Assembly (NCBI RefSeq): GCF_014280195.1
Contig: NZ_CP047960.1
Coordinates: 930,001-962,000 of the forward strand
DNA from: Synechococcus sp. A15-24
GTDB taxonomy: Bacteria; Cyanobacteriota; Cyanobacteriia; PCC-6307; Cyanobiaceae
Reading direction: 5' to 3'
DNA: 32,000 nt
The number at the start of each line of letters is the position of its first letter. Position 1 is the stretch's first letter. The position numbers and the translations under genes are program-made. Below the pieces are notes generated by a model. That model saw nothing but the letters and a program-made list of their open reading frames with translations. It was not told the origin of the DNA and searched no databases. Positions 1,430-31,176 of this stretch are shown piece by piece.

Positions 1430-1430
1430 C

Positions 1431-15936: not shown

Positions 15937-16017
15937 TGCTTGAACTCAATCAATGGATCGTAAACGTGTCGAATCGGGTTTTAATTGAGCTTCAGGTTAA
16001 CAAGTGCTTGCTGAAGC

Positions 16018-16045
16018 TTGACGCTTGAAGGCCAAGACCTAAAAT
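16018..16045 (+). promoter_or_regulatory. Putative sigma70-type promoter for the island mrp operon
   Basis: TTGACG (16018-16023), a 16-nt spacer, then TAAAAT (16040-16045). A GGGAG Shine-Dalgarno-like element lies at 16046-16050, ahead of the ATG at 16063. The element is very close to the start codon, so the leader would be very short. Motif match only. Confidence 0.3.
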
Positions 16046-16062
16046 GGGAGAACGGCTCCACC

Positions 16063-16410
16063 ATGATGGAATTAACTCCTGAAAAAATAAGACTTATTCC
16101 GATGGTCGCCTTGATCATCATTGGCTGTTTCGGATTGTTGAATTCAAAATCGATTCTGCGCTCACTTTTTTCCCTCGACGTCATTGACACTGCGACAATC
16201 AGCATTTTTGTTTTGATCGCCGCCTCTGGCGGAGCGCAAACTCCGATTGTTGCAGAGAGTCGCTACAGCCAGTATTCGGATCCTTACCCACAAGCAATTA
16301 TTCTGACTGCCATTGTGATTGGTTTTGCAACGCAGGCTTTGCTCTGTGCGATTGCTTTGCGTTTGGGGCGTCAATCCCCAATGCTTCGCTATAGGAACCT
16401 AGAGAAGTGA
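16063..16410 (+). CDS. mrpC: Mrp/Mnh cation:proton antiporter subunit C (NuoK-like)
   Basis: Three TM helices. DPYPQAIILTAIVIGFATQALL matches the MnhC/NuoK motif (DPLPQALVLTAIVI.F). The likely start is ATG 16063 (MMELTPEK), preceded by GGGAG. Confidence 0.85.
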   Translation: MMELTPEKIRLIPMVALIIIGCFGLLNSKSILRSLFSLDVIDTATISIFVLIAASGGAQTPIVAESRYSQYSDPYPQAIILTAIVIGFATQALLCAIALRLGRQSPMLRYRNLEK

Positions 16411-17948
16411 TGGATTCTCAAATTCTTTTGCCGGCTTTGATTTTTTTGCCTGCAGCGCTGGGTTTTTTGGGATGTGTTCTTCCCAGAATTGTTTTCCCAG
16501 TAAGTGTGGCGATGCTTCTTGCGTATGCCTTCCTGTCTCAAAACCTGATCGGTTCCGGAGTCTCTTACGTCTTCACTTTGGTTGGTGAAGGAGGTATTCA
16601 ATTCTCTATTGATTTGTATACGTTTCCGCTCGTCTTCGGAAGCTCGATCACACTATTAATCTGCTTTGGTCTTTTTTATCGGCGATTCTCTCACTACTTT
16701 TATCAAGTCTGCTTGGTTCTTTTCACTGCATTGTTGATTGCCTTCAGCACAGTTGATCTCGTTAGCATGTTTATTGCTCTCGAATTGGTTGGGTTCGCTG
16801 CATTTTTATTGATTGCCGATCGTAGTGATAAAAAATCACTTTTCCATGCTTTTCAGTACTTGATAGGCGGAGGCCTTGCAATGCTGATCTACCTCATTGG
16901 TGTTGTGCAGGCTTTTACATACACAGGGTCTTTTTTGTTGACTGATCTTGTTCGAGCCCCTGAAACGGCTTTGTGTTTGATCGTTGCGGGGCTTCTCACA
17001 AAATCAGGAGTCTTTTTGTGTGGTTTGTGGGTCCCAAACATCTATTCACACGCTAACTGTCAATCCTCTGCTGTTCTGTCGGGTTGTGTGACCTGTGCCG
17101 GCATTGCTCCGATTGCACGCATGAGTCAGATTCTGATTCCGATCGGTGACTCAATGGTTGTTATCGGTGTCGTCAGTGCTGTTGTGGCGGCAATTTATGC
17201 GGTTTTTGAACGAGAGAGTGGTCGTGCTTTGGGGTGGAGCTCTGTTTCACAACTTGGAATTGCAATACTTTCACCCACATATGCTTGTGCATATGCCATG
17301 CAACATGGAATTTGCAAAGCACTTCTCTTCTCAACTCTTCACACCAAAGATCGCTCTAAACTGAGTGACGACAGCGTCAGCCACTTACACAATCAATTGG
17401 AGAATGTCCCATCTCTTCCAGTGGAGGAGTTCATCCGTGTGATTGTGTTTGTTGTCGCAAGTCTTTCGATCATGGGCTTTCCATATTTAAGCGGTTTCAT
17501 TACCAAGAATTGGGTTAAAACAGATTTACCCTATGAAGCTAAGATCATTTACACAACGGCTGCTTTATTAACATCAACCGTTTATGCTCGCTTGATTTTT
17601 GATAGAGTTTCTAATTTTATTGACCATCAACAGCCTCAGACTGTTTTGGCACTTAGACGAATTAGCCTTAACATAATTGATGTGCTGTCGACTCCCAGGC
17701 TATGGATCTTGTTGGTATCAATAATTTCTCTTATATACTTTTCTTTTGTTGATACTACTTTATATTCAACCCCATCAATTCGCTCAGCAATTGTTTCAGC
17801 CATTCTTGGTGGGATTCTGTTTATATCAGTGGTCGGAATTCAAGCCGACGAATTTGTAAAGCCTATCACTCGCACACTTGATCTCGTTGGTGCACCGTTC
17901 CTTGTTGCAGCCTTGCTACTTGCCAACCTTCTATACCTAAAAATCTGA
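16410..17948 (+). CDS. mrpD: Mrp/Mnh antiporter subunit D (NuoM/N-type proton-conducting antiporter-like subunit), divergent
   Basis: About 512 aa, polytopic. TM5-like Glu (FIALELVGFAAFLLI), TM7-like Lys (LLTKSGVFLCGLWVPNIY) and SQLG (WSSVSQLGIA) are typical of the NuoL/M/N/MrpA/D family. The usual APTPVSALLH stretch is degenerate (HANCQSSAVLSG). The ATG overlaps the mrpC stop (TGATG). Confidence 0.85.
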   Translation: MDSQILLPALIFLPAALGFLGCVLPRIVFPVSVAMLLAYAFLSQNLIGSGVSYVFTLVGEGGIQFSIDLYTFPLVFGSSITLLICFGLFYRRFSHYFYQVCLVLFTALLIAFSTVDLVSMFIALELVGFAAFLLIADRSDKKSLFHAFQYLIGGGLAMLIYLIGVVQAFTYTGSFLLTDLVRAPETALCLIVAGLLTKSGVFLCGLWVPNIYSHANCQSSAVLSGCVTCAGIAPIARMSQILIPIGDSMVVIGVVSAVVAAIYAVFERESGRALGWSSVSQLGIAILSPTYACAYAMQHGICKALLFSTLHTKDRSKLSDDSVSHLHNQLENVPSLPVEEFIRVIVFVVASLSIMGFPYLSGFITKNWVKTDLPYEAKIIYTTAALLTSTVYARLIFDRVSNFIDHQQPQTVLALRRISLNIIDVLSTPRLWILLVSIISLIYFSFVDTTLYSTPSIRSAIVSAILGGILFISVVGIQADEFVKPITRTLDLVGAPFLVAALLLANLLYLKI

Positions 17949-18385
17949 TGACCAATTTTATTCGACTTTCTATTCTGTTGCTTTTCCGACTTTTATGTTG
18001 GTGTCTAGTGACCTCAAGCTTTGAATCAAGTAATATCATTTTTGGCCTCGTTGTTTGCGTATTGATCCCATTTGGTGATTTTCGTAAACTTCAACTCAAG
18101 GCTTTAATTCCTGAGCTCTTGCTGACATTGCGTCTTCCATTTGATATGCTGAAAGAAAGTATTCAATTGATTCTGATTCAACATCCCATTGATCTATTTG
18201 TTCATGAGAAGGTTAGTTCTAGAACACGAAATGGTTCTAGATTTGCCGAGTTCTTGGATTTATTTCGAATCACTTTTACCCCAATGTCTCTTGTTTTACG
18301 CAGGATTGACATTGATCAGTGGAGAGTCCATCTAGTTGGTTCGTCACAATCGGATTATGATCAGAATGTGAGGGATACGTTATGA
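17948..18385 (+). CDS. mrpE: Mrp/Mnh antiporter subunit E (tentative)
   Basis: 145 aa with two N-terminal TM helices followed by a soluble domain, which is MnhE-like in size and topology. Its position between the D and F subunits fits, and the start overlaps the mrpD stop (TGATG). Sequence similarity is weak by eye. Confidence 0.6.
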   Translation: MTNFIRLSILLLFRLLCWCLVTSSFESSNIIFGLVVCVLIPFGDFRKLQLKALIPELLLTLRLPFDMLKESIQLILIQHPIDLFVHEKVSSRTRNGSRFAEFLDLFRITFTPMSLVLRRIDIDQWRVHLVGSSQSDYDQNVRDTL

Positions 18386-18660
18386 AAAATATTGATCTCG
18401 TACCCCTCGAGATTATTGAATACAGCATCATTTATATGATGCTGTTGATCAGTATGATTCCAGTTGTTGCTATTTCAAGGACGACTAATACTCCTGAAAG
18501 AATAGCTTATGCTTCAAGTTTTGGCAGTAAACTTGCTTTTATTGTTATTGCAGCAGGTATCTTCAGAGGTGATTGGATGATTGGTTGTATTGGTGCCTTC
18601 ATTCTTATTGTTGGTGATGCTGGCATGTTGATTCTTTCTCTTTTGGAGTTGAAAATCTAA
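18382..18660 (+). CDS. mrpF: Mrp/Mnh antiporter subunit F (tentative)
   Basis: 92 aa, three TM helices. TNTPERIAYASSFGSK resembles the MnhF GPT..DR..A.D motif. ATGA overlap with mrpE. Confidence 0.6.
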   Translation: MKNIDLVPLEIIEYSIIYMMLLISMIPVVAISRTTNTPERIAYASSFGSKLAFIVIAAGIFRGDWMIGCIGAFILIVGDAGMLILSLLELKI

Positions 18661-18927
18661 ATGTTAAATCTACTTTCATTCGCAATTCTTTTTATCGGCT
18701 TAATTTTTTGGCTATGGGGCACATTGCCTATTGTTAATCGAGAACATTCAATATTTTATAAGCTACATACTCTTACAGTTTCAGATAGTGTTGGTTCACT
18801 CCTAATTCTTCTGGCCTTGTTGATTCGTGCTCCGCAATATTGGCCTATTTTTTTAGTAACGGCAATCTCTTTATCACTTTGGAATACTGTTTTTAGTTAC
18901 ATTATTGGTAACATCTCTAATCGTTAA
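18661..18927 (+). CDS. mrpG: Mrp/Mnh antiporter subunit G
   Basis: 88 aa, three TM helices. FYKLHTLTVSDSVGSLLILLAL resembles the MnhG Y.RLHA..K..TLG motif. It starts immediately after the mrpF stop. Confidence 0.68.
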   Translation: MLNLLSFAILFIGLIFWLWGTLPIVNREHSIFYKLHTLTVSDSVGSLLILLALLIRAPQYWPIFLVTAISLSLWNTVFSYIIGNISNR

Positions 18928-19472
18928 TGATGATTGATTTTCTAAGTACAGCTCTGCTCCTTCCGTTCGAGCTTCTACTTCCCATACTTGGCATCCTTCT
19001 AATTCAATCACAATCTCCAATAAACAGTTTAATTTATAGATCATTTTTGGGTAGCATTGCTGCTTTGATTTATGCATTAATTGGTGCACCTGACGTTGCA
19101 CTCACCGAAGTTATGGTAGGGACTCTACTGTCCTCGCTGATTTATATTGTTACAATACGCTCTTGCTATACAATTGTAATTATCGTCGATACAAATAATC
19201 CTCCGCACAAAAATATAAAAGATTGCTTGAAGTTAATTTTTGACGAACTGCATTTAAAAATTGAATACCAGTCAGAGGTCTTCACAGATTCTTGCGCAGA
19301 TAATTTGGTTTTTCTTTCTTCAGCCAAGTCATCAGGTTCACCTCATGCATTGATTCACAATTCCACCTGTTTCTTTGAAGTCCAATCTTTACTCGATGAT
19401 GTCACTCTGACAGACTCTAGTAAATTTCTGGAAGATAAAATTACTCTTTGTTTATTACCTTCTCGACCATGA
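18927..19472 (+). CDS. DUF4040 membrane protein (MrpA C-terminal / MbhD-like subunit) with a non-membrane C-terminal extension of about 100 aa
   Basis: The N-terminal about 80 aa has three TM helices and the motif GAPDVALTEVMVGT, characteristic of the MnhB-N/DUF4040 segment of MrpA. Residues from about 85 to 181 are hydrophilic with no recognised domain. TAATG overlap with mrpG. Confidence 0.72.
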   Translation: MMIDFLSTALLLPFELLLPILGILLIQSQSPINSLIYRSFLGSIAALIYALIGAPDVALTEVMVGTLLSSLIYIVTIRSCYTIVIIVDTNNPPHKNIKDCLKLIFDELHLKIEYQSEVFTDSCADNLVFLSSAKSSGSPHALIHNSTCFFEVQSLLDDVTLTDSSKFLEDKITLCLLPSRP

Positions 19473-20182
19473 CTTCGAGCAAAACACCAAGACAATTTAC
19501 GCTTTCTTCAGAAGTAGCAAAGTCAACTGTCTATCTCGTAGCAATCACAGCCGTGATGCTGATGATCTTATTCACGCGAGACGATTCAGTTGCGCGAGAC
19601 ACAGAGCAGATTGTTGAATATCTTTCACAATATACGCAGATTCCAAACGCAGTGACTTCTGTCATTTTGGGTACAAGACTTTTTGATACGATTGGAGAAG
19701 TGACCGTATTTACAATTGCAGGTCTTGGAGTAAAAATCCTACTTCATGCAGAAGATTCAGAGGAAAAATTTGTTGGTATTAATGATCAAGTTATCCGAGT
19801 ACTGCTCGATTTCGCTGCATTACTAAGCTGCTTTCTAGCGATTGATCTTGCAGTCAAAGGTCATTTAACTCCTGGAGGTGGCTTTGCCTCAGGAGTTGCT
19901 GGTGCAACATCGATTACTATTTTGATGATTACTGGACGAATTCAAAAGGTTGAGGCGTTTTACTTTGGTAGTAATTCTCCTGCTCTTGAAAAAGTAGCCG
20001 TTATTGTTTTTATGCTGGTTGCACTCGCAACTTTTAGCTCTTTCTTACTTCCACAGTCTGTCTTCGCCACAGTTCCACCTACAATTTATATTCCACTATT
20101 GAATATCGTTGCAGCCCTCAAAGTTACTATCGGCTCATGGTCTATTCTTCGCCTATTTATTGTGAAGAGAGGTGTCCTTTAA
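19469..20182 (+). CDS. mrpB: Mrp/Mnh antiporter subunit B (MnhB domain)
   Basis: NAVTSVILGTRLFDTIGEVTVFTIAGLGVKILL matches the MnhB motif (N.VTAIL.DYRG.DTLGE..V). Further TM helices include GHLTPGGGFASGV. ATG 19469 overlaps the previous stop (ATGA). Confidence 0.8.
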   Translation: MTSSKTPRQFTLSSEVAKSTVYLVAITAVMLMILFTRDDSVARDTEQIVEYLSQYTQIPNAVTSVILGTRLFDTIGEVTVFTIAGLGVKILLHAEDSEEKFVGINDQVIRVLLDFAALLSCFLAIDLAVKGHLTPGGGFASGVAGATSITILMITGRIQKVEAFYFGSNSPALEKVAVIVFMLVALATFSSFLLPQSVFATVPPTIYIPLLNIVAALKVTIGSWSILRLFIVKRGVL

Positions 20183-20184
20183 CG

Positions 20185-20940
20185 ATGTCATATCGAGAGA
20201 CTGATGATTGGTACTTCGGTGACTATAGCGGTCGTCTTCCAGGCCGATCTTATTCACTGCTTTTGAATAGCGTCATTATTACCCTCTTTGCTCAAATTGC
20301 ATTGACGACTGAGCCAACATTTGACACTCCATCAGGTCAAATATTTTTACGCTTTACTCTCAATATTATTGAACTTTTCTTCATTAGTGACTATATCGGC
20401 AAACTTGCCAACTCATGGGCTCAAATGGATTACTCTCTAAAGGGCCTTGTTTATAGCGCACTTTCGAGATATGCCTTGGTCGATTTATGCGTAGTCTTGA
20501 TTCTGCTTACCGATCTGTTTTCTAATGACTCTTTTGTTGTCATTGGTGTTTATGTCTTCAAAGCGCTAATATCTATTTATTTTTCAAGTTTTAGGCTGGT
20601 TTTGATGAGAGTTAGGTTCATTATTTTTGATTCCCCTGCATACACCTTCTTCCCGCTTGTTTTATTGTCGATTGTGACATATGTGATGGCATTTTGCATT
20701 TATCTTCTTGAAAGATCTAATGACTCTGCGCATTTTGGATCCATTGTACGAGCTTTTTGGTTTTCTATTGTCACGATGACCACGATTGGGTATGGTGATG
20801 TTACACCTACAACATCTCTTGGGAAAGTCCTTGCGATCATGTTTGGTATTGTTGGCATTGTTTGCGTCGCGTTGTTAACAGCTAACATTCTTGAGGCTAA
20901 TGCTAAGTTTAACGAGATTGAGTCAAGTGGAAAAATCTAG
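20185..20940 (+). CDS. Six-TM potassium channel (Kv-like ion-transport protein) with a TIGYGD selectivity filter
   Basis: Pore helix and filter FWFSIVTMTTIGYGDVTP. Five upstream hydrophobic segments are present. The S4-like segment FRLVLMRVRFIIF carries only three Arg. No RCK or CNBD domain. The ATG at 20185 lies 2 nt after the mrpB stop. Confidence 0.88.
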   Translation: MSYRETDDWYFGDYSGRLPGRSYSLLLNSVIITLFAQIALTTEPTFDTPSGQIFLRFTLNIIELFFISDYIGKLANSWAQMDYSLKGLVYSALSRYALVDLCVVLILLTDLFSNDSFVVIGVYVFKALISIYFSSFRLVLMRVRFIIFDSPAYTFFPLVLLSIVTYVMAFCIYLLERSNDSAHFGSIVRAFWFSIVTMTTIGYGDVTPTTSLGKVLAIMFGIVGIVCVALLTANILEANAKFNEIESSGKI

Positions 20941-21700
20941 TCCTTCCATTGCGCTTAATAATCAATATGGTGTTTCTATGCATTCACTCAATCATATATT
21001 AGATGTTGGAACTCCGTTTGTAATTTTTGAGGCCTATGTGTCTTCCTATCATAAATTTATCGACTTTATAAAATTTGGTTGGGGAAGTGCTTTGATAGAT
21101 CCTGAGTTTGAGTCGAAGAAGGAAATCTGTGAACGATTTGGGATTAAGCCTCTACTTGGTGGCACTTTTTTTGAGTATATGATTCATCATCATGGCTTTG
21201 CGGGCTTTGTGAAAAAAATTGAACAATATGGACTGCAATATGTTGAACTTAGTCGAGGCACAATTGATATTGATGACTCGTTGTATGCGTCCTATATTAA
21301 GCAACTTTCTTCAGACTATTACGTTATGAGTGAAGTGGGGAGGAAATCCTCAGACCCCTCCCAGGCCCTTGCTCCATCACAATGGCTTGCCCATTGTGAG
21401 CTCTCATCAGATGCAGGGGCTTCCTTAGTGGTACTTGAATCACGTGAGTCGGGTCGCTCGGGATATGTTTCTACTGGTGGCGATGTCAACGCGGTCATGC
21501 TTGATTCCATAAGCAATTCACTTCCCATCAACTCTCTACTGTTTGAGGCACCAATCAAGTCTGTTCAGACCTTTTTGATTAAACGTTATGGTGCATCGGT
21601 CAACCTGGGTAATCTTTCACTGGTTGATCTCTTAGCAGTTCAGTCACTACGTCTTGGGTTGCGTTCAGACACGCTGCTTGAATCCAAAGCAATATTTTAA
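20900..21700 (+). CDS. comA: (2R)-phospho-3-sulfolactate synthase ComA-family protein
   Basis: Block-by-block match to the remembered Methanocaldococcus ComA: IDFIKFGWGSA (DFVKFGWGTS), LLGGTFFEY (PGGTLFEY), VELSRGTIDI (VEISDGS), SEVGRK (EVGKK), DAGASLVVLESRESG (DAGADYVIIEGRESG), LFEAPIKSVQ...YGASVNLGN (IFEAPQKSQQ...FGSSVNLAN) and LRLGLRSDT (LRRGLRGDT). The start is uncertain (ATG 20900, GTG 20930 or ATG 20978). The first two overlap the end of the channel gene. Confidence 0.85.
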   Translation: MLSLTRLSQVEKSSPSIALNNQYGVSMHSLNHILDVGTPFVIFEAYVSSYHKFIDFIKFGWGSALIDPEFESKKEICERFGIKPLLGGTFFEYMIHHHGFAGFVKKIEQYGLQYVELSRGTIDIDDSLYASYIKQLSSDYYVMSEVGRKSSDPSQALAPSQWLAHCELSSDAGASLVVLESRESGRSGYVSTGGDVNAVMLDSISNSLPINSLLFEAPIKSVQTFLIKRYGASVNLGNLSLVDLLAVQSLRLGLRSDTLLESKAIF

Positions 21701-21729
21701 TATTTTTCTTTTTGACGTCAGCTAGCAGA

Positions 21730-21764
21730 TTGTCAATAGGCTTATTCTCGCCTATCATTATAAT
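21730..21764 (+). promoter_or_regulatory. Putative internal promoter of the island, upstream of the binding-protein/carrier pair
   Basis: This is the only sizeable intergenic gap in the island (21701-21785). It contains TTGTCA (21730-21735), a 17-nt spacer, TATCAT (21753-21758), and an adjacent TATAAT (21759-21764). The perfect palindrome TGACGTCA sits at 21713-21720. Motif match only. Confidence 0.3.
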
Positions 21765-21785
21765 GACCATTTCCTAGCTCTATTG

Positions 21786-22667
21786 ATGTCGCCTAAATGG
21801 CCAAAAGCATTCGTAAGGCATCTAATTGCTTTCACCTTGACCGTAGCATTATTGCAGGCATTGCCGGCTTTGGCTGCTGAAAATAGTTTCATAAATTCGA
21901 TTCAACAACGTGGATATTTAAAAGTCGGATTGCCACCATACAATACGCCTCCCGCATACTATATCGATAAAAAAACAGAAAAACTGCAAGGATATGATGT
22001 AGAGCTGGCCCGCGAACTTGCTGACAAGCTTGGCGTTGATCTTCAATTTGATAGAGAATCAAAAAGCTTTAATTCACTTGTAGAGCGTGTTGGTGCTGAC
22101 GATTTTGATCTAGCGATCGGCAAGCTGGGTCTCACTTATAATCGATTATTTGACGCATTTCCTGTCCAGTATTTGAGCTTCCGTCATGCTCTCCTCGCAG
22201 ATCGAAAGTTTATTTCTAGTCTAGGAGTCGATCCGGAAGATGATGGTTTTGGCGATGCGTTGAAAACTTCAAATATCCGCATTGGTTCTATTGAAAACTC
22301 AACTTGGGAAACTGAGGCGAAAGTTAACTTCCCAAACTGTAAATTTGTTGGCTACAAAAACTGGGAGGATGCTCAGAAGGCTTTGTTGGCTGTTGACCCC
22401 AAAACCAAAAAATCAGCTATCGATGCAATTTATCGTGATGCCACTGAGATCAAGCCAATTGTTTATAAAGATCCTGATTTATCGCTTAAATACGTCCCTG
22501 TTCTTTTTGACGATATTATTGATCGAAAATCTATTTATCTTTCCGAGAAGGGCTACATAGGATTTTCGGACTTTCTTGATGTCTTTATTCGTCGAGAGTG
22601 GGGTGAGGTCAAGTCTGACGAACGCATCCTCAATGAATATCAAGCTTATTACCAGCCAGTATCTTGA
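21786..22667 (+). CDS. Periplasmic solute-binding protein, family 3 (polar amino acid / organic acid type) with a signal peptide
   Basis: The signal peptide is MSPKWPKAFVRHLIAFTLTVALLQALPALA-AE. The SBP_bac_3 pattern is YLKVGLPPYNTPPAYYIDKKTEKLQGYDVELARELADKLGV...FDLAIGKLGLTYNRLFD, including the T..R carboxylate-binding position. Confidence 0.85.
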   Translation: MSPKWPKAFVRHLIAFTLTVALLQALPALAAENSFINSIQQRGYLKVGLPPYNTPPAYYIDKKTEKLQGYDVELARELADKLGVDLQFDRESKSFNSLVERVGADDFDLAIGKLGLTYNRLFDAFPVQYLSFRHALLADRKFISSLGVDPEDDGFGDALKTSNIRIGSIENSTWETEAKVNFPNCKFVGYKNWEDAQKALLAVDPKTKKSAIDAIYRDATEIKPIVYKDPDLSLKYVPVLFDDIIDRKSIYLSEKGYIGFSDFLDVFIRREWGEVKSDERILNEYQAYYQPVS

Positions 22668-22672
22668 TCATT

Positions 22673-24061
22673 ATGCAGACATCTCAGGATTCCATGTCAT
22701 TTCTTGATCGGGTGTTCTCGATTCTCCCGGCACTTCGAAAACCTCGCAATTTCTTCCTTTATATACTTCCGTTTTCAATTGTTTTCGGAAGAGTTATACC
22801 AACACAGCTTGCTTCTGGTTTAAATGACGTTGGATTGGCAATGGTTCAACTCATTGCTTTCCCGGCGATTCCGCTTGTGTTGTCTGCCGTCATGATTTCA
22901 ATTGCTAATATTTTTAATGAAGACAATCGGTCGGCTCAGCGCCGGTTGCGCTTCTCCAGTCGTTTTGTGATTTCCTTGACGCTGACGATTCTCCTCGCAT
23001 CTTTGCTGGCACTTCTTCTTTCTATCTATCAGGCGCCTGGAGTTTTGTCACCGGATGGAAAACTATCAATTGGTCGTTTCATGCTTGATACGACTGATAT
23101 TCGCGTAGGGGGAGATGTCGCAGCTTCATCAATCTCTAGCGACTTCTGGATCGCAAAAATTGTTCCCAGCAATATTCTGGCTGATGCATCTGCTGGTCAG
23201 ACACTGAGAGTAATAAGTGGATCGGTTTTGGCTGGTTTGGCTATGTCCAGGTTGAATCCTGGTCTAACCCAACCACTGCTTTCGCTTCTTCGCAGTGTTA
23301 ACACTACGTCAGTGCAGGTTTTAAGCATTGTGCTAAATCTTGCTCCTCTTGTTCTTATCTGTCTGATCTCTGGCGCTGTTTCTACTATCAACGCTGAGAT
23401 TGTTGTTGCGCTTTTAAACTTTACAATCTGTGTTTTCCTGACGGCAATTGCCTCTCTTGGTATCTCAAGGCTTGTTTTTCGTCGTTTCACATCTACGCGT
23501 GAGCGAGCGACGACTGATGCAAATCCTGTGGACTCTGTCTTTCTTCTCAGTCTTTCCACTGGCAGCAGTATGACGGCATATCCACTGATGTTTGAGACCC
23601 TCAAGGGGATGGGGCGTGATGAATCCGAAGTTGAAGCATCAGCTTCTCTCAGCCTGTTAATCGCTCGTTTGGGTAATGTTACTTACAACGTCATCGCGAT
23701 TGTCTTTGCTCTCAATCTTTACGATGTGGGTCTTACACCTGTGCGTTTTTTGGAGGTCATTTTCCTTGGCGCTTTTACAGGGATTTCGGCTGCTGGGTTG
23801 ACTGGTGTTGCCACTGTTCCGACGATTGCTGTCGCGCTCTCTTATTTCCAAGTACCGATCCCGCCTGTTTTAGTTCTTCTCTTAGCGATTGATCCGATTC
23901 TTACGTTGCCGCGTGCTGCTACAACCGGTGTTTTGGCGATCGCGATTTCAGTGATTTCCTCAGCCAAGTCCAGCAACTCAGAGCTGTCTGATGTCTCATC
24001 CAGTTCCTCCCTTGGTCTGCTCAGCCAGCAGGGTGATGTTGCCTCACTAGAAGGTGGTTGA
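22673..24061 (+). CDS. Divergent dicarboxylate/amino acid:cation symporter (DAACS, GltP/DctA/EAAT-like) family carrier
   Basis: About 460 aa, polytopic. By-eye matches to DAACS landmarks: FPAIPLVLSAVMISI (PLVF.S...GI, TM3), HP1-like STGSSMTAYPLMFE (SSSA.TLP), HP2-like GISAAGLTGVATVP (S.G.AGIPG.G) and TM8-like LAIDPILTLPRAATTG (.D...D..RT..NV.GD). The NMDG motif is not conserved (ARLGNV). The start is ATG 22673 or 22694. The TTG at 22664 overlaps the binding-protein stop. Confidence 0.72.
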   Translation: MQTSQDSMSFLDRVFSILPALRKPRNFFLYILPFSIVFGRVIPTQLASGLNDVGLAMVQLIAFPAIPLVLSAVMISIANIFNEDNRSAQRRLRFSSRFVISLTLTILLASLLALLLSIYQAPGVLSPDGKLSIGRFMLDTTDIRVGGDVAASSISSDFWIAKIVPSNILADASAGQTLRVISGSVLAGLAMSRLNPGLTQPLLSLLRSVNTTSVQVLSIVLNLAPLVLICLISGAVSTINAEIVVALLNFTICVFLTAIASLGISRLVFRRFTSTRERATTDANPVDSVFLLSLSTGSSMTAYPLMFETLKGMGRDESEVEASASLSLLIARLGNVTYNVIAIVFALNLYDVGLTPVRFLEVIFLGAFTGISAAGLTGVATVPTIAVALSYFQVPIPPVLVLLLAIDPILTLPRAATTGVLAIAISVISSAKSSNSELSDVSSSSSLGLLSQQGDVASLEGG

Positions 24062-24513
24062 TGCAACCGATTCAGTCCCTATCTCGGATGATACGCCAGC
24101 TCTTGACTGTTGTGTCAGGGCTCTTGATCGTCGTAACCCTGTCGTCCTGCACCCTTCGCAATGAGCCGCCCCGCGCCATTGTCATTGAGGCCTTGCAGTC
24201 ACAGATCCAGACGACCCAGGTCTCCATTGCACAAAGTCTTGACTTGCAACCTGTGGCCTCTGCTCCTGCCGTCAGCCGGGTTCGCGTCGACCATCAAGAG
24301 GTCCTCAAGGTGGAGGGCGAGCGTTTCGTGCATTTAGAAGGCAGTTTTGACTGGCAGTTACCTCGGGACAGCGTCCGTGTGGACAGTGCCTTTGATCTCT
24401 ACCTCCAGCGCGGGTCGCACGGAGAAGGGTGGAGTCTTGCCAGGCCTGCAGTAAGCAATGGTGGCGAAGCCCAGCGTTGGCTGCTCTACCCCCTCGGCTT
24501 GCCCACGAGCTGA
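24061..24513 (+). CDS. Lipoprotein, unknown function (core-genome composition)
   Basis: The signal peptide carries the lipobox LLIVVTLSS-C. GC here is back to flank level. The ATG at 24061 shares its A with the TGA of the island carrier gene. Confidence 0.7.
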   Translation: MQPIQSLSRMIRQLLTVVSGLLIVVTLSSCTLRNEPPRAIVIEALQSQIQTTQVSIAQSLDLQPVASAPAVSRVRVDHQEVLKVEGERFVHLEGSFDWQLPRDSVRVDSAFDLYLQRGSHGEGWSLARPAVSNGGEAQRWLLYPLGLPTS

Positions 24514-24518
24514 TCTGA

Positions 24519-25406
24519 TCAGGCCTGACGGCTGGAGAGGCTGATAAAGGATGCACCCAGCACAAGCGCTGCACCACCACATGTGAATGCCGTAATTGAT
24601 TCGTTGAACCAGATCCACCCCCAGCTAGCAGCGAACAACACCTGGACGTAATTCAGCGACGTCGCCCTCGCCGCTGGCAGACAGCTCAGCCCCTTGGTCA
24701 CCCAGATCTGGCCGAGTTGAGTCAGCACACCGACTCCGAGCAACCAGATCCAATCCACCGCTGAAGGCCAGACCCCGATGTGCAGAACCATCGGCAGCGT
24801 GAGGGGAATCGAGACCACAGGGAAATAGAGAATGATCACCAAGGGGTGTTCCTTGGCCGATAAGCGTCGGACGCATACATATGCCAGAGCTGTAAATAAA
24901 GCTCCGCCCAGGGCTGTCAGCCCTGGGCGTAACGCCAGCCCGTTCTGGCCTGCGCCCAGCCATTCCGGTTGGATCACAAACACCACCCCGAGCAAGCCCA
25001 GCAGCACGGCCAAGCCAATGCGACGGCGCAGCCGTTCCCCCAGCAATAGCCAGGCCGCCGCTGCAGTGAATGTTGGGTAGGTGTACTGCAGGACCGTGGC
25101 TGATGCCAGCGGTAATGCAGTGATCGCCTCGAAGAAGCACAGCAGGGCAACGCTTCCACAGATGCCGCGTAGCAGCAGCAGGCGTCGGTTGTTCCCCAGG
25201 GGTTTGATCCCTCCAACCGCCATGGCTGTTCCCGTCAGGGCAATGCTCACAACGGATCGAACCAGCACGATCTCGCTGACGGGAATTCGTCCTCCCAGTT
25301 GTTTGACGCACACCGTCATCAGGCTGAAGGCAAGAGAGCTCAGAACCAGGGCCCTCGCTCCCTGCATCTCCTGGCGCTGCCACCAGGTCGACGTCTGTTC
25401 ATCCAT
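24519..25406 (-). CDS. DMT-superfamily (EamA-like) transporter
   Basis: Ten predicted TM helices arranged as two EamA-like repeats (ALVLSSLAFSLMTVCVKQL ...; ...LTQLGQIWVTKGL). The chosen start is MDEQTS (ATG at 25406), because the 25472 start would overlap dnaG. Confidence 0.85.
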   Translation of the reverse strand: MDEQTSTWWQRQEMQGARALVLSSLAFSLMTVCVKQLGGRIPVSEIVLVRSVVSIALTGTAMAVGGIKPLGNNRRLLLLRGICGSVALLCFFEAITALPLASATVLQYTYPTFTAAAAWLLLGERLRRRIGLAVLLGLLGVVFVIQPEWLGAGQNGLALRPGLTALGGALFTALAYVCVRRLSAKEHPLVIILYFPVVSIPLTLPMVLHIGVWPSAVDWIWLLGVGVLTQLGQIWVTKGLSCLPAARATSLNYVQVLFAASWGWIWFNESITAFTCGGAALVLGASFISLSSRQA

Positions 25407-25464
25407 GGTTGCGCTGGTGCTCCTGATGGGTGGACGCCGACCTGCGACTTCGCAGAATGGGTCC

Positions 25465-27516
25465 ATGGTCAATGCCCGCCTTCATCCCCGCACCATCGAC
25501 GCCGTCAAGGAGCGGGCGGACATCGTCGATGTGGTGGGCGACCACGTCGTTCTGAAAAAGAAAGGACGGGAGTTTGTCGGCATCTGTCCGTTTCACGACG
25601 ACAGCAAGCCGTCGATGACGGTGTCTCCCGCCAAGCAGTTCTACTACTGCTTCTCCTGTGGTGCGGGCGGAAACTCCATCAAGTTCCTGATGGAGTTTCA
25701 GCGGCAGAGTTTCAGCGATGTAGTGCTGGATCTGGCCCGCCGTTATCAGGTGCCGGTCGAGACCGTTGATGGTCCTCAGCAGGAGCGGTTGAAGCAGCAA
25801 CTCTCCCGGCGGGAGAAGCTTCAGCGGGCCCTGGCCTTGGCTGCCGGTTGGTTTCGCAGCCAGTTGCGCAGCCCGACGGGTGAGCAGGCCCTGGCGTACC
25901 TCACGGAAGTTCGTGGCCTGACACTCGCCACCCAGGAGACATTCGGTCTCGGTTACGCCCCGGACCAATGGGACGGCCTTTTAAAGCATCTGCAGCAGGT
26001 GGAAGGCCTTTCGGCTGAGCTGTTGGAGGCAGCTGGACTGGTGGTCCCCCGCAAGGGTGGCCATGGCTTCTACGACCGTTTTCGCCGTCGGGTGATGGTT
26101 CCGATTCACGACCGTCAGGGACGGGTGATTGGCTTCGGTGGCCGGAGCTTGGATGGCAGCGAGCCCAAATACCTGAACTCTCCAGAGACGGAGGTGTTCG
26201 AGAAAGGCAAGCATCTGTTCGGCCTCGACAAGGCCACCAACACCATCCGCAAGCAGGACCGTGCCGTGGTGGTGGAGGGTTACTTCGATGTCATCGCCCT
26301 GCACGCGGCAGGGATCACCAATGCGGTGGCGTCCCTGGGCACCGCCCTCAGCAGCCAGCAGATCACCCAGCTCTGTCGCGTCACCGACGGCAAGCGGATC
26401 GTTCTCAACTTTGACGCGGACGGCGCTGGGGTTCGTGCGGCTAACCGCGCCATCGGTGAAGTGGAGCAGCTCGCCTTGCAGGGGCAACTGGAGCTGCGGG
26501 TGCTGCATCTGCCTTCCGGCAAAGATCCAGATGAGTTCCTCAAGGACCATGGCGCCGGGGATTACCGGGCTCTGCTCGATCAGGCGCCCCTCTGGCTGGA
26601 CTGGCAGATCGAACAGGCCCTCGCTGATCGAGACCTTGCCAAGGCGGATCAGTTCCAGCAGGCGGTCTCGGCCTTGGTGGCTCTGCTCGGAAAGTTGCCT
26701 CAGTCGGCGGTGCGCACCCATTACCTGCAACGGGTCGCTGAACGGCTCAGCGGCGGTCAAGGTCGATTGGCACTGCAGCTGGAGGACGACCTGCGCCAGC
26801 AGGTGAAGGGCCAGCGTTGGCATGGTCGATCCAGCCGGCATGACCAGCCGGGCGACACCAGTCAGCGGGAGCGCTGTGAGGCTGATCTGCTGCGCCTTTA
26901 TCTGCATGCCCCCCGCCACAGGGGCACGATCCGCCAGGAGTTGCGCCAGCGGGAACTGGAGGACTTTGCGATCCCCCATCACCGTCTGCTCTGGGCCTCT
27001 CTGACGGAACTTGAGGAGACCAACCTCGGCGTGGGCCGCCTGGAATCGATCAGCCGTGGTGAAGATGATGGTGACGGCCTAGATGGGCTGGACCTGCCCC
27101 GTCTGCTGACGGACCAGCTGCTGCTGGAGAACAGCCCTCTGTTGTCACGGCTGACGCCATTGCTCGAACCGGGTGAACTGGAGCGTGTCGCCCTGGCCGA
27201 ACCGCTCGAGCAGTTGCGTGGGCTCGCGGCATTGCTGGAGCGTCAGAAGAGCTTCAAGCGCTGCCGCCACCTGCTGGAAGCCTGGGGTGGGCAGCGTCTG
27301 CAGACCTTGGAAGCCTGCATTTCCGTGTTGGTGCAAGACAACCAGGCGGATCAGCAGGGTGTGGACATGGAAGGCCGCATCGAGCAACTGTTCGAGGAGC
27401 TCAACCGCGATGCGTTGCACTACCAGGAGCTGTATTACAGCGAGAGGAAGCACATTCAGCATCTCGATCAGCAACGCCGCGGCGGCTTCCAGACCGTTGA
27501 TGTCCTGTCCGCCTGA
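25465..27516 (+). CDS. dnaG: DNA primase DnaG
   Basis: CHC2 zinc finger [40 protein letters not shown] region [16 protein letters not shown]...LNFDADGAG. The true start is ATG 25465 ([24 protein letters not shown]). The 25081 start in the track is an out-of-gene extension antisense to the DMT gene. Confidence 0.95.
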
Positions 27517-27529
27517 ACCCCGCGGGCGG

Positions 27530-28567
27530 ATGATGGATTCCCGTGCTGTCTTGGTGATGGGCCTGTTCGAGCGCTATCTCTCCCTGTGGATCGCTCTGGC
27601 GATTGCGGTGGGTGTGCTTCTGGGGGGCGTTTTTCCTGATCTGGCGAGCTGGATCGCCTCATTGGAGGTGGCCCGCATCAACGTTCCGATCGCCGTTCTG
27701 ATCTGGGGAATGATCGTTCCGATGATGCTGGCCGTGGATTTCTCCGCCATCGGTGGCATCCGCCAGCAACCGCGGGGTCTGCTGGTCACTGTGGCCGTGA
27801 ACTGGTTGATCAAGCCCCTCACGATGACGGCCCTGGCCTTGTTGTTCATCCGTGGGGTGTTCGCGGCCTGGATCCCGGAAGCGATGGGTCAGGAGTATGT
27901 GGCCGGGATGATTCTGCTGGGGGTGGCCCCTTGCACCGCGATGGTGTTCGTGTGGAGTCGCCTCAGTGATGGGGATCCCAACTACACCCTGGTGCAGGTG
28001 GCGGTGAACGACCTGATCATGGTGTTTGCCTTTGCCCCGATTGCAGCGTTATTGCTTGGGGTGAGTGACGTGCTGGTGCCGTGGGACACGATGATCACGG
28101 CGGTGGGGCTGTTCGTGGTGGTGCCGTTGGCGACGGGATGGTTGATGCAGGTGTTTTTGAAGTCCCCTGGTCGGATTGCGCGGTTGGAGGCCCAGCTCAA
28201 GCCCCTAGCGATCACGGCTCTGATCGCCACGGTGCTGCTGCTGTTCATGGTGCAGGCCCAGGCGATCCTGTCCAATCCCCTGGCAATCGTGCTGATCGCG
28301 ATCCCGCTCATCCTGCAGACCTATCTGATTTTCTGGCTCACGGCGCAGTGGATGCGCCTCTGGGGGCAACCACGCACGGTCGCGGCCCCTGGCGCGATGA
28401 TCGGCGCCTCCAATTTCTTTGAGCTAGCGGTGGCTGTGGCCATCAGCCTGTTCGGCTTGAATTCCGGCGCTGCCCTCGCCACTGTGGTGGGAGTGCTGGT
28501 GGAAGTGCCGGTGATGCTGTCGCTGGTGGCGATCGCCAACCGCAACCAACGTCTGTTCCCCGCTTGA
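27530..28567 (+). CDS. acr3: Arsenite efflux carrier, ACR3 family
   Basis: [18 protein letters not shown] at the N-terminus. [32 protein letters not shown] (conserved Cys region) and [13 protein letters not shown] (conserved Glu) are ACR3 hallmarks. ATG 27530 lies 13 nt after the dnaG stop. Confidence 0.92.
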
Positions 28568-28568
28568 G

Positions 28569-28826
28569 ATGTCTGAATTCTTCGAAGCGATCTGGCACGG
28601 TGAGGGCATCGGCGACGGTGCTGATCTGGAGGAAGCTCTCCAGGCCTATGCCGTGGTGAAACCGGAGGACGGCGACTGGGTGGAGGCTTGTGCTGCTGAC
28701 GGGGCTGATCCGGTGGTCGAGCGCTTCCCCTCCTTCGACGCCTATCTGGATAACGCCGATCCGCTCGAGACCATCGCTGTGTCGCCGCAGATGATTGCCG
28801 AGGCGATTGCGCTGTTGCCGGTTTGA
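28569..28826 (+). CDS. Small acidic hypothetical protein
   Basis: 85-aa ORF that starts 1 nt after the acr3 stop. Very acidic (many D/E). No family recognised. Its composition is consistent with neighbouring genes. Confidence 0.5.
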   Translation: MSEFFEAIWHGEGIGDGADLEEALQAYAVVKPEDGDWVEACAADGADPVVERFPSFDAYLDNADPLETIAVSPQMIAEAIALLPV

Positions 28827-29122
28827 TGTCCGACGCTCAGCTTGATTTTGCGGCCTTGACGCCCGTCAACCATCTCTGGCCGGCCTTCGTTGAGCGTCTT
28901 GGCACCGACAAGGCCCAGCGGGCCGTGCGGCAAGCCCTTGATCTTCAGGGCATGCGTGGCCATGACGGCACCTTGCCGGTGCTGTTCGTTGAGACCGGCG
29001 GCCTGGCACTGGCCAGCACCGATCTGGTGCGGGAACAGACGGGACTCAATGCCCATGGTGATCGGATGGTGCTGCTGCTTAGCACCCTCGACCAGGTGAT
29101 CCAGTTGTTGCAGCAGGCTTAG
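28826..29122 (+). CDS. Hypothetical protein
   Basis: 98-aa ORF whose ATG overlaps the previous stop (TGATG). No family recognised. Confidence 0.5.
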   Translation: MSDAQLDFAALTPVNHLWPAFVERLGTDKAQRAVRQALDLQGMRGHDGTLPVLFVETGGLALASTDLVREQTGLNAHGDRMVLLLSTLDQVIQLLQQA

Positions 29123-29301
29123 AGGACGGCGGCCGGGGCATCGGTCAGTCGATGCCGTTCAGCCTGCAGAGCGGTCTGCGGGAATCGCGCCTTGGCCTGC
29201 GGTTGTTCCGTCGGCGTTTCCATGGTTCCTGCGCTGATCTGTTGGCCCACCAGCACCGCCAGTGCACTGATGATCAAGGTGATCGCTTTCTCTTTCCCCA
29301 T
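29119..29301 (-). CDS. Possible small secreted or membrane-anchored protein
   Basis: 60-aa ORF downstream of umuC with a hydrophobic N-terminus (AITLIISALAVLVG). There is no homology evidence. It could be a chance ORF in GC-rich DNA. Confidence 0.3.
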   Translation of the reverse strand: MGKEKAITLIISALAVLVGQQISAGTMETPTEQPQAKARFPQTALQAERHRLTDAPAAVL

Positions 29302-29396
29302 GCCTTGGTTTGGCTCTTGATCAAGGTTGTCGTCCGCGTCGTTGTCCCATCCTTGGCATTCCCCTGAATCGGCTGAACGCTGTCTGAGAGCGCATC

Positions 29397-30677
29397 TCAG
29401 CGATCGGCGTGCACCACCGGTACATCACTCAGTCGGGTGGTGGCAGTCCGTCCCAGCCGCTCCCGTCGCATCATCCAGCTCGGATGCAACCCGCAGGCTG
29501 CCCACTGCACCGTGCCTCGGCCATAGCGGCGATTGAGCTGATCAATGGTGCGCATCAGCCCTTCCCGTCGTTGTTGCTGTGCCTCACTCAGCGGCACCAG
29601 AAGATGGGACTGGAGCAGCTCGGTTCCCTGCAGGTGCTGCATCAGCACCCCCGCTTTCGCCAGCTGTCGGTGTGGTCGGAAGATGCGGTCCACCAGGGGG
29701 AGCGCTGCTTCCAGCAGAACGGTGGTGTCGTTGCTGGGCAGATCCAGTCGGATGCTGGCGGCCTGGCTGTAAAACGCGGGGATGAAGGGGCTGGTGCGGG
29801 TGTACACCGTGAGGGCGGCAGCCCGTTGGTGCTGCTTGCGCAGTTTTTCCGCGGCGCGCACCACATAGGTGGCGACGGCCTGCCGCAGTTCCTCCAGGGT
29901 CGTGATCGGCCGGCTGAAGCTGCGGCTCACGCAGGTTTCCTGTTTGGGGGACGGTGCCAGCGCCAGCGGCAGGCAGGCATGGCCGCGCAGTTCCCGCTGC
30001 AGCCGCAACCCCACCACACCGCACTTCGCCCGCAGTTCACCGCTGGGCATGTCCCGCAGCAGGCGGGCGTTGTTCACCCCCCGCAGCCGGCACCAGCGCG
30101 CCAGTTTGCGGCCGATGCCCCAGACGTCCTCGATTGCGATGGTCTCGAGCCAGGCGTCGGGATCCGCGCAGTGGCCCAGATCGAAGATGCCGGCATGGGC
30201 GGGGACTTGCTTGGCCAGGCGATTGGCCAGTTTCGCCTGGCTTTTGCTGGCCCCCAGGCCGATGGCGATCGGCAGCCCCAGGTCCTGGCGGACCCGGGCT
30301 CGCAGGGATCGGCCCCAGGTCTGCAGGTCACCATCCTTCGGACGACGGACGCGCCCGAAGGCTTCGTCGATGGAATAGACCTCGAGCTCTTCGCAGTGAA
30401 TCTCCAGCAGGCTCATCATCCGCTGGCTCATGTCGGCGTACAGGGCGTAGTTCGAACTGCGCACCACCACGTTCTGGCGTTCCAGCTCCTGACGCGCCTT
30501 GAAATAGGGGGTCCCCATTGCAATGCCGAGGGCCCTGGCTTCTGCACTGCGGGCCACGATGCAGCCGTCGTTGTTGGAGAGCACGACGACGGGTTTGCCG
30601 ATCAGGCTGGGGTCAAGGCTCTGTTCGCAGGAGGCGTAGAAGTTGTTGCCGTCGATCAGGGCGGTGGCAAGGCCCAT
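29397..30677 (-). CDS. umuC: Y-family translesion DNA polymerase UmuC (Pol V catalytic subunit)
   Basis: ALIDGNNFYASCEQSLDP, VVVLSNNDGCIVARS, YSIDEAF and VWGIGRKLARWC motifs of the ImpB/MucB/UmuC family. Confidence 0.93.
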   Translation of the reverse strand: MGLATALIDGNNFYASCEQSLDPSLIGKPVVVLSNNDGCIVARSAEARALGIAMGTPYFKARQELERQNVVVRSSNYALYADMSQRMMSLLEIHCEELEVYSIDEAFGRVRRPKDGDLQTWGRSLRARVRQDLGLPIAIGLGASKSQAKLANRLAKQVPAHAGIFDLGHCADPDAWLETIAIEDVWGIGRKLARWCRLRGVNNARLLRDMPSGELRAKCGVVGLRLQRELRGHACLPLALAPSPKQETCVSRSFSRPITTLEELRQAVATYVVRAAEKLRKQHQRAAALTVYTRTSPFIPAFYSQAASIRLDLPSNDTTVLLEAALPLVDRIFRPHRQLAKAGVLMQHLQGTELLQSHLLVPLSEAQQQRREGLMRTIDQLNRRYGRGTVQWAACGLHPSWMMRRERLGRTATTRLSDVPVVHADR

Positions 30678-30678
30678 G

Positions 30679-31110: not shown

Positions 31111-31135
31111 CACGGGCAAGCAAGCCTGCTTGAAT

Positions 31136-31149
31136 AGTACTGATGTATT
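31136..31149. promoter_or_regulatory. Putative cyanobacterial-type LexA (SOS) box
   Basis: AGTACTGATGTATT compared with the remembered cyanobacterial consensus RGTAC-NNN-D-GTWC-B / AGTACWNWTGTACT shows one mismatch (the final arm is GTAT rather than GTAC). It lies 26 nt upstream of the umuD ATG and overlaps a TACTAT -10-like hexamer on the minus strand. Confidence 0.5.
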
Positions 31150-31176
31150 GGTCGCAGTGTGCTCGCTCCGGTGAGG

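Follow-up and report, generated by a model that had tools for sequence, protein, structure and literature searches.

A family-3 solute-binding protein constantly paired with an NMDG-less SDF carrier: a candidate binding-protein-dependent secondary transporter in marine picocyanobacteria

In a 32,000-nt stretch of Synechococcus sp. A15-24 DNA (contig NZ_CP047960.1, positions 930,001 to 962,000, forward strand; hereafter the window, whose numbering is used below unless another locus is named), a gene for a family-3 solute-binding protein (SBP) lies immediately upstream of a gene for a divergent carrier with the glutamate-transporter (SDF/DAACS) fold. This pairing recurred at every locus that could be evaluated. 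We estimate at roughly 60% the probability that the pair is an SBP-dependent uptake transporter on the SDF/DAACS elevator fold. As judged from the families of its two proteins, it is most likely a binding-protein-dependent secondary transporter with a carrier fold and an SBP family that are both new to that class. The pair is laid out as follows.

21786-22667, forward strand: SBP gene, encoding a family-3 solute-binding protein of 293 aa (ATG 21786, with TTG 21783 as an alternative start; stop TGA 22665-22667).
21786-21875, forward strand: predicted signal peptide, residues 1-30, read off the sequence, with a probable cleavage site between A-L-A and A-E.
22664-22675, forward strand: SBP-carrier junction, with the SBP stop TGA at 22665-22667, a TTG at 22664 that overlaps this stop, and an in-frame ATG at 22673.
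22673-24061, forward strand: carrier gene, encoding an NMDG-less protein of the SDF/DAACS fold (PF00375) of 462 aa, or 465 aa from TTG 22664 (stop TGA 24059-24061).

An earlier note on this DNA, written from the sequence alone, had placed the end of a signal-peptide-bearing SBP_bac_3 protein at 22667 and the candidate carrier starts at TTG 22664 and ATG 22673, and both the sequence and Pfam bear this out. The ATG begins 5 nt past the SBP stop, and it agrees with close homologues, which are called at 462 aa. From the overlap, or alternatively the 5-nt gap, translational coupling of the two genes is plausible. Gene calls deposited for relatives give either a 4-nt overlap of the two genes or a spacing of 3-27 nt.

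The strongest evidence for a common function is the constancy of the pairing. A gene for an SBP of the same family adjoins the carrier gene at 55 of 55 evaluable loci, across phyla, so that an arrangement proposed by the earlier note from one window proves to be conserved in other genomes. We collected 38 loci by looking up genomic contexts and by scanning one genome of each species. They come from marine Synechococcus, Cyanobium, single-cell genomes of Prochlorococcus and some metagenome-assembled genomes (MAGs) that are evidently mis-binned; among these picocyanobacterial and related loci, an SBP homologue was found directly upstream of the carrier wherever upstream sequence was present (36/36). 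Next in order of similarity, at 25-29% identity, are carriers from Glaciecola punicea or Glaciecola-like sources, a gammaproteobacterial MAG and Prochlorothrix hollandica, and all four of these loci have an SBP immediately upstream. The family hidden Markov model (HMM) matched these four SBPs with E-values of 2e-60, 1.3e-33, 5e-30 and 4e-4, the last being a 61-residue fragment. Both G. punicea assemblies carry the pairing, in the order DcaP/Porin_2 porin, SBP, SDF, and in neither is there an ABC gene of any kind within 10 kb. A metagenome scan seeded with six carriers of the G-R-Y-G-N type returned 17 loci from unrelated samples; 13 had evaluable flanks, and at all 13 the GR[FY]GN-type carrier had an adjacent SBP of the same subfamily (E = 1e-46 to 1e-60). 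No SBP gene neighbours the two NMDG-type controls, E. coli dctA and P0389. The constant pairing is informative because the surroundings of the pair vary.

At the Prochlorothrix hollandica locus (L042; 75-791 and 1274-2635 of that locus), the SBP open reading frame (ORF) is without its N-terminal part and lies ~480 nt from the carrier, unlike at all other loci; the copy may be decaying, or the sequence or its assembly may be at fault. Several contigs bearing the picocyanobacterial cluster are labelled Rubripirellula, Candidatus Pelagibacter, Klebsiella, Verrucomicrobiales or Paracoccaceae in public MAGs (L016, L028, L029, L036, P0016, P0168), and these foreign labels are probably binning errors.

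Two further observations tie the proteins to each other. Across 45 unique loci, the identity matrices of SBP and carrier were correlated at r = 0.943 (Mantel p ~0.001), and at r = 0.815 when comparisons were limited to those below 45% carrier identity, values that shared ancestry inflates. In addition, a 728-aa protein of Candidatus Wallbacteria (P0348) joins the two in one chain, which opens with an N-terminal hydrophobic segment (signal or anchor), continues with an SBP domain belonging to this subfamily (1.7e-50; 16-266 of the 289 HMM positions) and, after one additional hydrophobic helix at 292-310, enters SDF at transmembrane helix 1 (TM1). The predicted topology of this fusion keeps the SBP outside the cell, as a carrier with its N-terminus inside requires. 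We consider it very probable that SBP and carrier form one functional unit.

The same observations bear on whether the SBP instead serves an ATP-binding cassette (ABC) importer encoded elsewhere, its adjacency to the SDF gene being incidental. Every database labels the family as an SBP of ABC transporters, and amino-acid ABC transporters are present elsewhere in marine Synechococcus strains (PMC7771541, PMC8786288). Incidental adjacency is nevertheless hard to square with a pairing kept at 55 of 55 loci across phyla and in very different contexts, with genes that overlap or nearly abut, with co-divergence and with a covalent SBP-SDF fusion. ABC importer genes were found neither within ~10 kb of the pair in the context loci with listed gene calls, the two G. 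punicea assemblies among them, nor in the 32-kb window, and we regard this explanation as very improbable. The earlier remark that the neighbourhood is free of ABC permeases and ATPases thus holds for importers, since the sole ABC gene is of the exporter type and distant.

2499-4253, reverse strand: exporter-type ABC_membrane+ABC_tran fusion (half-transporter), the only ABC gene of the window, ~18 kb from the pair.

The assignment of the carrier to the SDF/DAACS fold is secure at the level of domain models. It matched Pfam SDF (PF00375, TCDB 2.A.23) with E = 1.4e-35 and 123.5 bits against a cut-off of 27.9, over profile positions 20-383 of 387. It is also very divergent, as had been claimed, and falls far under the NCBIfam equivalog cut-offs of the GltP/DctA models (62.6 vs 638 bits for NF008440 and 59.7 vs 513 bits for NF002461). 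Among solved SDF structures, the clade profile matched best to 9bgz, an 'aspartate transporter' (2.9e-29), with GltPh at ~1e-13. An exhaustive search of 1.84 billion cluster representatives showed the carrier clade to be narrow, with one relative at 53% identity, three at 30-33%, and the next at ~25%. SBP and carrier each have several hundred close homologues in marine metagenomes, and their identity bands run in parallel.

Motif states were taken from a profile of eight clade members against the PDB, together with an alignment to E. coli DctA (NC_000913.3), and both reproduce the by-eye alignment of TM8 and the NMDG motif in the earlier note. In GltPh numbering, N310-M311-D312-G313 of TM7 is replaced by A-R-L-G. 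In TM8, D390 and R397 are retained, while D394 is replaced by T, T398 by A, N401 by T and D405 by A; in TM3, T92 is retained, S93 is I and Y89 is L. The serine motif of hairpin HP1 (S-T-G-S-S) and the A-G-x-x-G motif of HP2 (A-G-L-T-G) are retained as well, and the carrier clade shows no variation at D407, P408 and R414 (window numbering). The TM7 motif of clade relatives reads ASLG, SSMG, GRTG, ARAG or SRSG, with Gly as the one invariant residue. In E. coli DctA, TM7 reads SFNLDGTS and TM8 reads IDRFMSEARALTNLVGN; the carrier is like DctA at 394 (T vs S) and 398 (A in both), but unlike DctA it has lost N310, D312 and N401.

These states extend well beyond the clade. Nearly all of the nearest carrier relatives are without NMDG, and the canonical I-N-M-D-G is confined to the lowest-ranking matches. 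We tabulated the motifs of 127 full-length representatives, 128 sequences with the window's carrier. Arg occupies the M311 position in 104 of the 128, typically as G-R-[FY]-G-N. Position 394, variable in the carrier clade, is D in 92/128 of this wider branch, which mostly retains D394 and T398. On these motifs, the carrier is a member of a large NMDG-less SDF branch that has generic annotation only. As the canonical Na1 and Na3 ligands (N310, D312, N401, D405 and S93) are absent, the energy coupling must, to judge from the alignments, be different from that of GltPh, GltP and DctA; at the level of sequence, the atypical coupling suggested earlier is upheld. The idea that a fixed Arg of ARLG stands in for a Na+ ion is weakened, since this Arg is not invariant in its own clade (ASLG, SSMG), though it is frequent in the wider branch.

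The SBP matched Pfam SBP_bac_3 (PF00497) with E = 8.7e-11 and 42.1 bits (cut-off 26.4), the N-lobe alone being matched. Its N-terminus, MSPKWPKAFVRHLIAFTLTVALLQALPALA followed after the predicted cut by AENSF, resembles a signal peptide, and 69 of 72 members of the SBP family have an N-terminal hydrophobic export signal. An AlphaFold2 model built from a 72-sequence alignment reached a pLDDT of 89 and a pTM of 0.78; an earlier run with 22 sequences at at least 62% identity (pLDDT 63.5, pTM 0.42) was discarded in its favour. Foldseek placed the model in the class II periplasmic-binding-protein (PBP) fold, closest to amino-acid SBPs, AncCDT-1 and the AncCDT/CDT lineage (E ~1e-16, TM 0.55-0.75). 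The family is widespread, occurring in Alteromonadales, Magnetococcus, Desulfobacterales and many filamentous cyanobacteria, always under generic ABC-type names. Many filamentous-cyanobacterial members (P0449, P0475-P0481, P0483-P0487 and others) have an added peptidoglycan-binding domain (PF01471), which would tether the SBP in the periplasm.

Fifteen positions are invariant among the 72 SBP members, which reach down to ~23% identity: P56, G69, D71, R90, D108, K113, T117, R120, Y129, W193, R217, D218, E221, K223 and D246. When E. coli HisJ and ArgT were aligned to the family HMM, R120 and D218 fell on HisJ R77 and D161 (mature numbering), and the likewise invariant K113 and R217 fell on HisJ positions 70 and 160. 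In HisJ/LAO, R77 anchors the alpha-carboxylate and D161 the alpha-ammonium group of the bound amino acid, and on that basis the SBP argues for a ligand that is an alpha-amino acid with an additional anionic group. The earlier note had instead proposed a non-amino acidic compound. This proposal fares unevenly: the DctA-like T394/A398 of the carrier speaks for it, while the invariant HisJ-type anchors of the SBP (n=72) and the D394/T398 of most of the wider branch speak against it. The SBP anchor pair would fit the wider branch better than it fits the carrier of the window's clade.

The CDT-like similarity raises the alternative of a periplasmic catalyst: the SBP-like protein, as an enzyme of the cyclohexadienyl-dehydratase lineage or similar, would make the carrier's substrate outside the cell. 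The PDB sequences closest to the SBP profile are indeed AncCDT-1, AncCDT-3 and cyclohexadienyl dehydratases (3.6e-20 to 1.4e-19), and the CDT lineage ranks high in Foldseek. Invariant E221 aligns with the Glu of 'TDTVE' in AncCDT-3 (5jos), which is Val in the non-catalytic AncCDT-1, an alignment that covers this one catalytic residue. However, AncCDT-1 is itself a binding protein, amino-acid SBPs score equally, the residues at HisJ Arg77/Asp161 are invariant, and the single-helix fusion to the carrier in P0348 suits delivery better than catalysis. We therefore consider an enzymatic role quite improbable.

For an SBP-dependent uptake transporter, we infer from sequence a mechanism whose physical docking, transport direction, substrate and coupling ion would be as follows. 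The ligand would cross the outer membrane, via porins where the operon encodes them, and the exported SBP_bac_3 protein would capture it in the periplasm as a small anion, the likeliest candidates being alpha-amino acids whose side chain is acidic and sulfonates or dicarboxylates closely analogous to them. The loaded SBP would then dock on the inner-membrane SDF carrier and hand the ligand over, and the carrier would take it across the inner membrane by an elevator movement. Coupling might be to H+, to a single cation at another site, or to a directionality that the SBP imposes on a facilitator. The retained HP1 serines, the HP2 A-G-x-x-G, D390 and R397 are elements of the substrate site and favour transport, and porin genes, SBP export signals and peptidoglycan-binding domains are in keeping with a periplasmic uptake context. 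In picocyanobacteria the pair sits within an ion-homeostasis cluster, with an Mrp or CPA antiporter and often a K+ channel and ComA. In the window, this cluster and the other features are arranged as follows.

16063-20182, forward strand: Mrp-like multisubunit cation/proton antiporter cluster, directly upstream, identified by Pfam (window and syntenic loci) and ORFs.
20137-20940, forward strand: K+ channel (Ion_trans_2/Ion_trans; Pfam 4.3e-18), a frequent, non-universal member of the cluster.
20891-21700, forward strand: ComA-family (2R)-phospho-3-sulfolactate synthase homologue (PF02679, 9.5e-58), a variable member of the cluster.
21730-21758, forward strand: promoter-like TTGTCA-17-TATCAT in the ComA-SBP spacer, with 10/12 consensus matches (weak evidence).
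24061-24513, forward strand: conserved lipoprotein-like ORF of 150 aa with the N-terminus ...LSSC and high GC content, its ATG overlapping the carrier stop (TGATG).
783-856, reverse strand: tRNA gene near the left end of the window, unrelated to the pair.
29397-31245, reverse strand: umuD/umuC-like pair (Peptidase_S24 and IMS polymerase) near the right end, unrelated to the pair.

The Mrp-like cluster comprises MnhC-like, MnhD-like, MnhE, a small subunit, MnhG, MbhD and MnhB. The true start of ComA is probably downstream of the first start codon of its ORF. The 150-aa lipoprotein-like ORF, which had no match in Pfam or NCBIfam, stands downstream of the carrier in most Synechococcus loci, with a homologue upstream of the Mrp cluster in L020-L022; whether it belongs to the SBP-SDF system is uncertain. 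A consensus scan for promoters and terminators gave a regional total no higher than the shuffled expectation, and an Rfam scan of the window returned no riboswitch or other element pointing to a ligand. The remaining genes of the window are of the housekeeping kind: crp-like, msrA, trpD, carA, gatA, dnaE, ruvA, dnaG, ACR3-like and umuDC.

At most marine loci, the stretch between ruvA and dnaG has the Mrp cluster, then a K+ channel and ComA, each of them optional, and finally SBP and SDF; a relative at 53% identity (P0241) has the same module at another chromosomal place. Cyanobium loci have, in place of the seven-gene Mrp cluster, a single CPA-type Na_H_Exchanger gene (5.4e-55; 7491-8858 in L036 and 7481-8848 in L037). 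This non-homologous swap implies a functional tie of the pair to cation/proton exchange. The constant antiporter linkage, together with the replacement of Mrp by CPA, suggests that the activity of the pair is tied to the Na+/H+ cycle or to ion or osmotic balance. Porin genes accompany the pair on the same strand in Cyanobium, where an OprB gene follows the carrier (L036, 11338-12924), and in Glaciecola, where a DcaP/Porin_2 gene immediately precedes the pair (L043/L044, 7810-9075). ComA stands beside the pair in three lineages (Synechococcus; Prochlorococcus, in L030 and L032 at ~7928-8686; and the distant L013, at 465-1169) and is missing from many loci; in L013 the order is ComA, a glyoxalase-fold protein, SBP, SDF and a HAMP-SpoIIE protein. 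In L005-L007, a 560-715-nt gap at its usual place is possibly a ComA remnant. Since ComA recurs in three lineages, a sulfonated acid such as cysteate or sulfolactate may be put forward, as speculation, among the candidate substrates.

The cluster also differs in composition from its surroundings. The same-strand run from the Mrp cluster through the K+ channel, ComA and SBP to the carrier is a low-GC block, at 41.6% against ~62-63% on both flanks (16000-24060 vs 1-11000 and 24061-32000), and its sharp boundary sits exactly at the carrier stop codon. In every high-GC Synechococcus or Cyanobium genome (L001, L008, L015, L023, L034, L036, L037), the Mrp-(K channel)-(ComA)-SBP-SDF cluster is 10-20 GC points under its flanks, and in the high-GC genomes it occupies the same syntenic slot (ruvA ... 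dnaG). In the low-GC Prochlorococcus, cluster GC equals flank GC. Repeated exchange with low-GC picocyanobacteria, or a compositional constraint, are possible causes.

The K+ channel, one to two genes upstream in most marine loci, invites the proposal that the SBP gates it as a split glutamate-gated K+ channel of the GluR0 type, the SDF protein being a bystander or accessory. Many SBP members do match the ligand-binding Pfam of ionotropic glutamate receptors (iGluR; PF10613), a weak profile match reaches the ligand-binding domain of GluR0 (1ii5, 9e-6), and the channel itself matches Lig_chan, the model of the iGluR pore, below threshold (1.5e-4). But the channel matches both Ion_trans and Ion_trans_2, hence is not a GluR0-type pore, and it is absent from L008-10, L023, L034, Cyanobium, Glaciecola and all metagenome loci, which keep SBP-SDF. 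The fusions, moreover, join the SBP to SDF and never to a channel. We find a split GluR0-type channel extremely improbable.

Other members of the NMDG-less branch bring signalling into view. In four proteins (P0284, P0268, P0302, P0363), a degenerate SBP-like domain follows SDF TM8 with no hydrophobic segment between, and P0319 has a weak match of this kind; the SBP-like domain of P0363 is apparently without the carboxylate-anchor Arg. The SDF C-terminus is cytoplasmic, and with no such segment after TM8 these domains should lie in the cytoplasm too. That placement of the C-terminus agrees with the SDF-TM-dCache-TM-cyclase fusions P0295 and P0343. The latter, of ~1200 aa, join an NMDG-less SDF to dCache_1 and an adenylate/guanylate cyclase domain, one of them with added TPR repeats. 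At L041 (1520-3589), a dCache-cyclase gene directly follows the carrier. In some operons (among L047, L049, L051 and L052), an SBP is accompanied by two SDF fusions, one of the SDF-SBP-like kind and a second, long one.

These proteins support an alternative in which the pair is a sensing or gating module. An NMDG-less SDF protein without ion coupling would be a transceptor or an SBP- or ligand-gated anion conductance, feeding ion homeostasis in picocyanobacteria and cyclic-nucleotide or phosphatase signalling in other phyla. SDF/EAAT proteins carry an uncoupled anion conductance, which counts in its favour, as do the loss of the Na1 and Na3 ligands, the SDF-dCache-Guanylate_cyc fusions, the dCache-cyclase gene at L041 and the HAMP-SpoIIE gene that follows the carrier at L013, the operons with two SDF fusions, and the constant linkage to two unrelated cation/proton antiporter families and a K+ channel. 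Set against this, no signalling domain is attached or adjacent to the pair in the window or at any picocyanobacterial locus, the porin-SBP-carrier operons resemble uptake routes, and the HP1 serines, D390 and R397 are conserved. Co-sensor transporters such as DctA with DcuS still transport, and the fusions are thus compatible with transport. We consider such a module unlikely but a serious rival to uptake, and retain it mainly because of the unexplained cytoplasmic SBP-like domains. A broader form of the proposal, in which NMDG-less SDF proteins and family-3 SBPs are a widespread ligand-sensing or ligand-gated ion-conductance system rather than nutrient importers, wired in picocyanobacteria to Na+/H+ antiporters and a K+ channel for control of ion or osmotic balance, and in other phyla fused or linked to cyclic-nucleotide cyclases and PP2C phosphatases, appears unlikely to us.

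Several points weigh against an SBP-dependent transporter. The carrier lacks the canonical coupling-ion ligands named above. The substrate signals conflict, with the amino-acid anchor pair of the SBP on one side and the DctA-like T394/A398 in TM8 of the window's clade on the other. The C-terminal SBP-like domains of the four SDF-SBP fusions should by their predicted topology lie in the cytoplasm, a misfit with periplasmic capture, and the branch members fused or adjacent to dCache-cyclase or HAMP-SpoIIE hint at signalling. Among the statistics, the control set consists of two loci, and the co-divergence is subject to the inflation already mentioned.

The SDF/EAAT/GltPh family serves as the textbook example of an elevator transporter. 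Its members are seen as ion-coupled carriers that need no partner, and canonical SDF members work without an SBP. The carrier of the window is like canonical DAACS/SDF proteins (GltPh, GltTk, E. coli GltP/DctA, EAATs, ASCTs) in its full-length PF00375 match, HP1 serines, HP2 A-G-x-x-G, D390 and R397. It is unlike them in having ARLG for NMDG, in the loss of N401, D405 and S93, in this clade also of D394 and T398, and in the dedicated SBP gene that is always present.

The SBP, for its part, shares with polar-amino-acid ABC SBPs (HisJ/LAO/ArgT, GlnH) and AncCDT-1 the class II PBP fold, the equivalents of HisJ Arg77/Asp161 and a signal peptide. It differs from the polar-amino-acid ABC SBPs in having no permease or ATPase genes nearby (cf. 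hisJ-hisQMP), in being always adjacent to or fused with an SDF carrier, and in its extra invariant charged residues R90, K113, R217, E221, K223 and D246. GluR0 (Synechocystis Slr1257) likewise ties a family-3-type ligand-binding domain to a cyanobacterial ion-transport protein, and a K+ channel gene is present in our cluster. GluR0, however, is a single polypeptide with an inserted pore, whereas here the SBP is separate and secreted and its constant partner is an SDF carrier, not the channel.

Among binding-protein-dependent secondary transporters, TRAP (DctPQM) and TTT (TctABC) use a periplasmic SBP to deliver an organic acid to an elevator-type secondary carrier, as we propose here. Their SBP families (DctP/TAXI and Bug/TctC) and membrane fold are unrelated to those of the pair, which Pfam assigns to SBP_bac_3 and SDF. 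TRAP also depends on a small additional membrane subunit, of which the pair shows no evident counterpart, and the cluster contains neither DctQ/M nor TctA/B genes. The earlier note had taken TRAP and TTT to be the only systems of this kind, a view now outdated: they were the only secondary transporters known to use a soluble SBP until Jaques et al. (Commun Biol 2025, PMC12344293) reported TAXI-GltS of Bordetella pertussis. That system was argued from translational coupling and rare fusions, its SBP was shown to bind L-glutamate, and further SBP-dependent elevator-type classes were predicted (PMC12344293). The parallel with the present pair is close, as in both an SBP gene is coupled to a carrier that normally works alone, rare fusions occur, an elevator-type carrier is proposed and the kinds of evidence are the same. 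The components differ, with a TAXI (TRAP-type) SBP and GltS of the ESS family there, and an ABC-type family-3 SBP and a carrier of the SDF/DAACS fold, known by sequence, here. GltS is also a Na+:glutamate symporter, whereas the present carrier is without canonical Na+ ligands. By family assignment, the pair is not a member of TRAP, TTT or TAXI-GltS, its SBP and its carrier both being of other families.

In full-text literature searches we found no published description of an SBP_bac_3-SDF system, and a 2021 review of picocyanobacterial SBPs (PMC8786288) treats the family-3 SBP cluster that it discusses as an amino-acid ABC component, with no SDF partner mentioned. With the conserved pairing and the P0348 fusion, this agrees with the earlier view that an SBP_bac_3 protein together with an SDF-type carrier is an undescribed architecture.

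If the pair is an SBP-dependent transporter, it would offer a direct test of the idea, put forward in the literature, that dependence on an SBP is a feature of elevator mechanisms, and cultured organisms carry it: Glaciecola punicea, Prochlorothrix hollandica and sequenced Synechococcus (MIT S1220, A15-62). It would also mean that non-ABC carriers can recruit family-3 ABC SBPs, and that hundreds of "ABC transporter substrate-binding protein" annotations are mis-assigned. For marine Synechococcus and Prochlorococcus, organisms of global importance for carbon and organic-nutrient cycling, the pair would represent an unrecognised uptake or sensing route.

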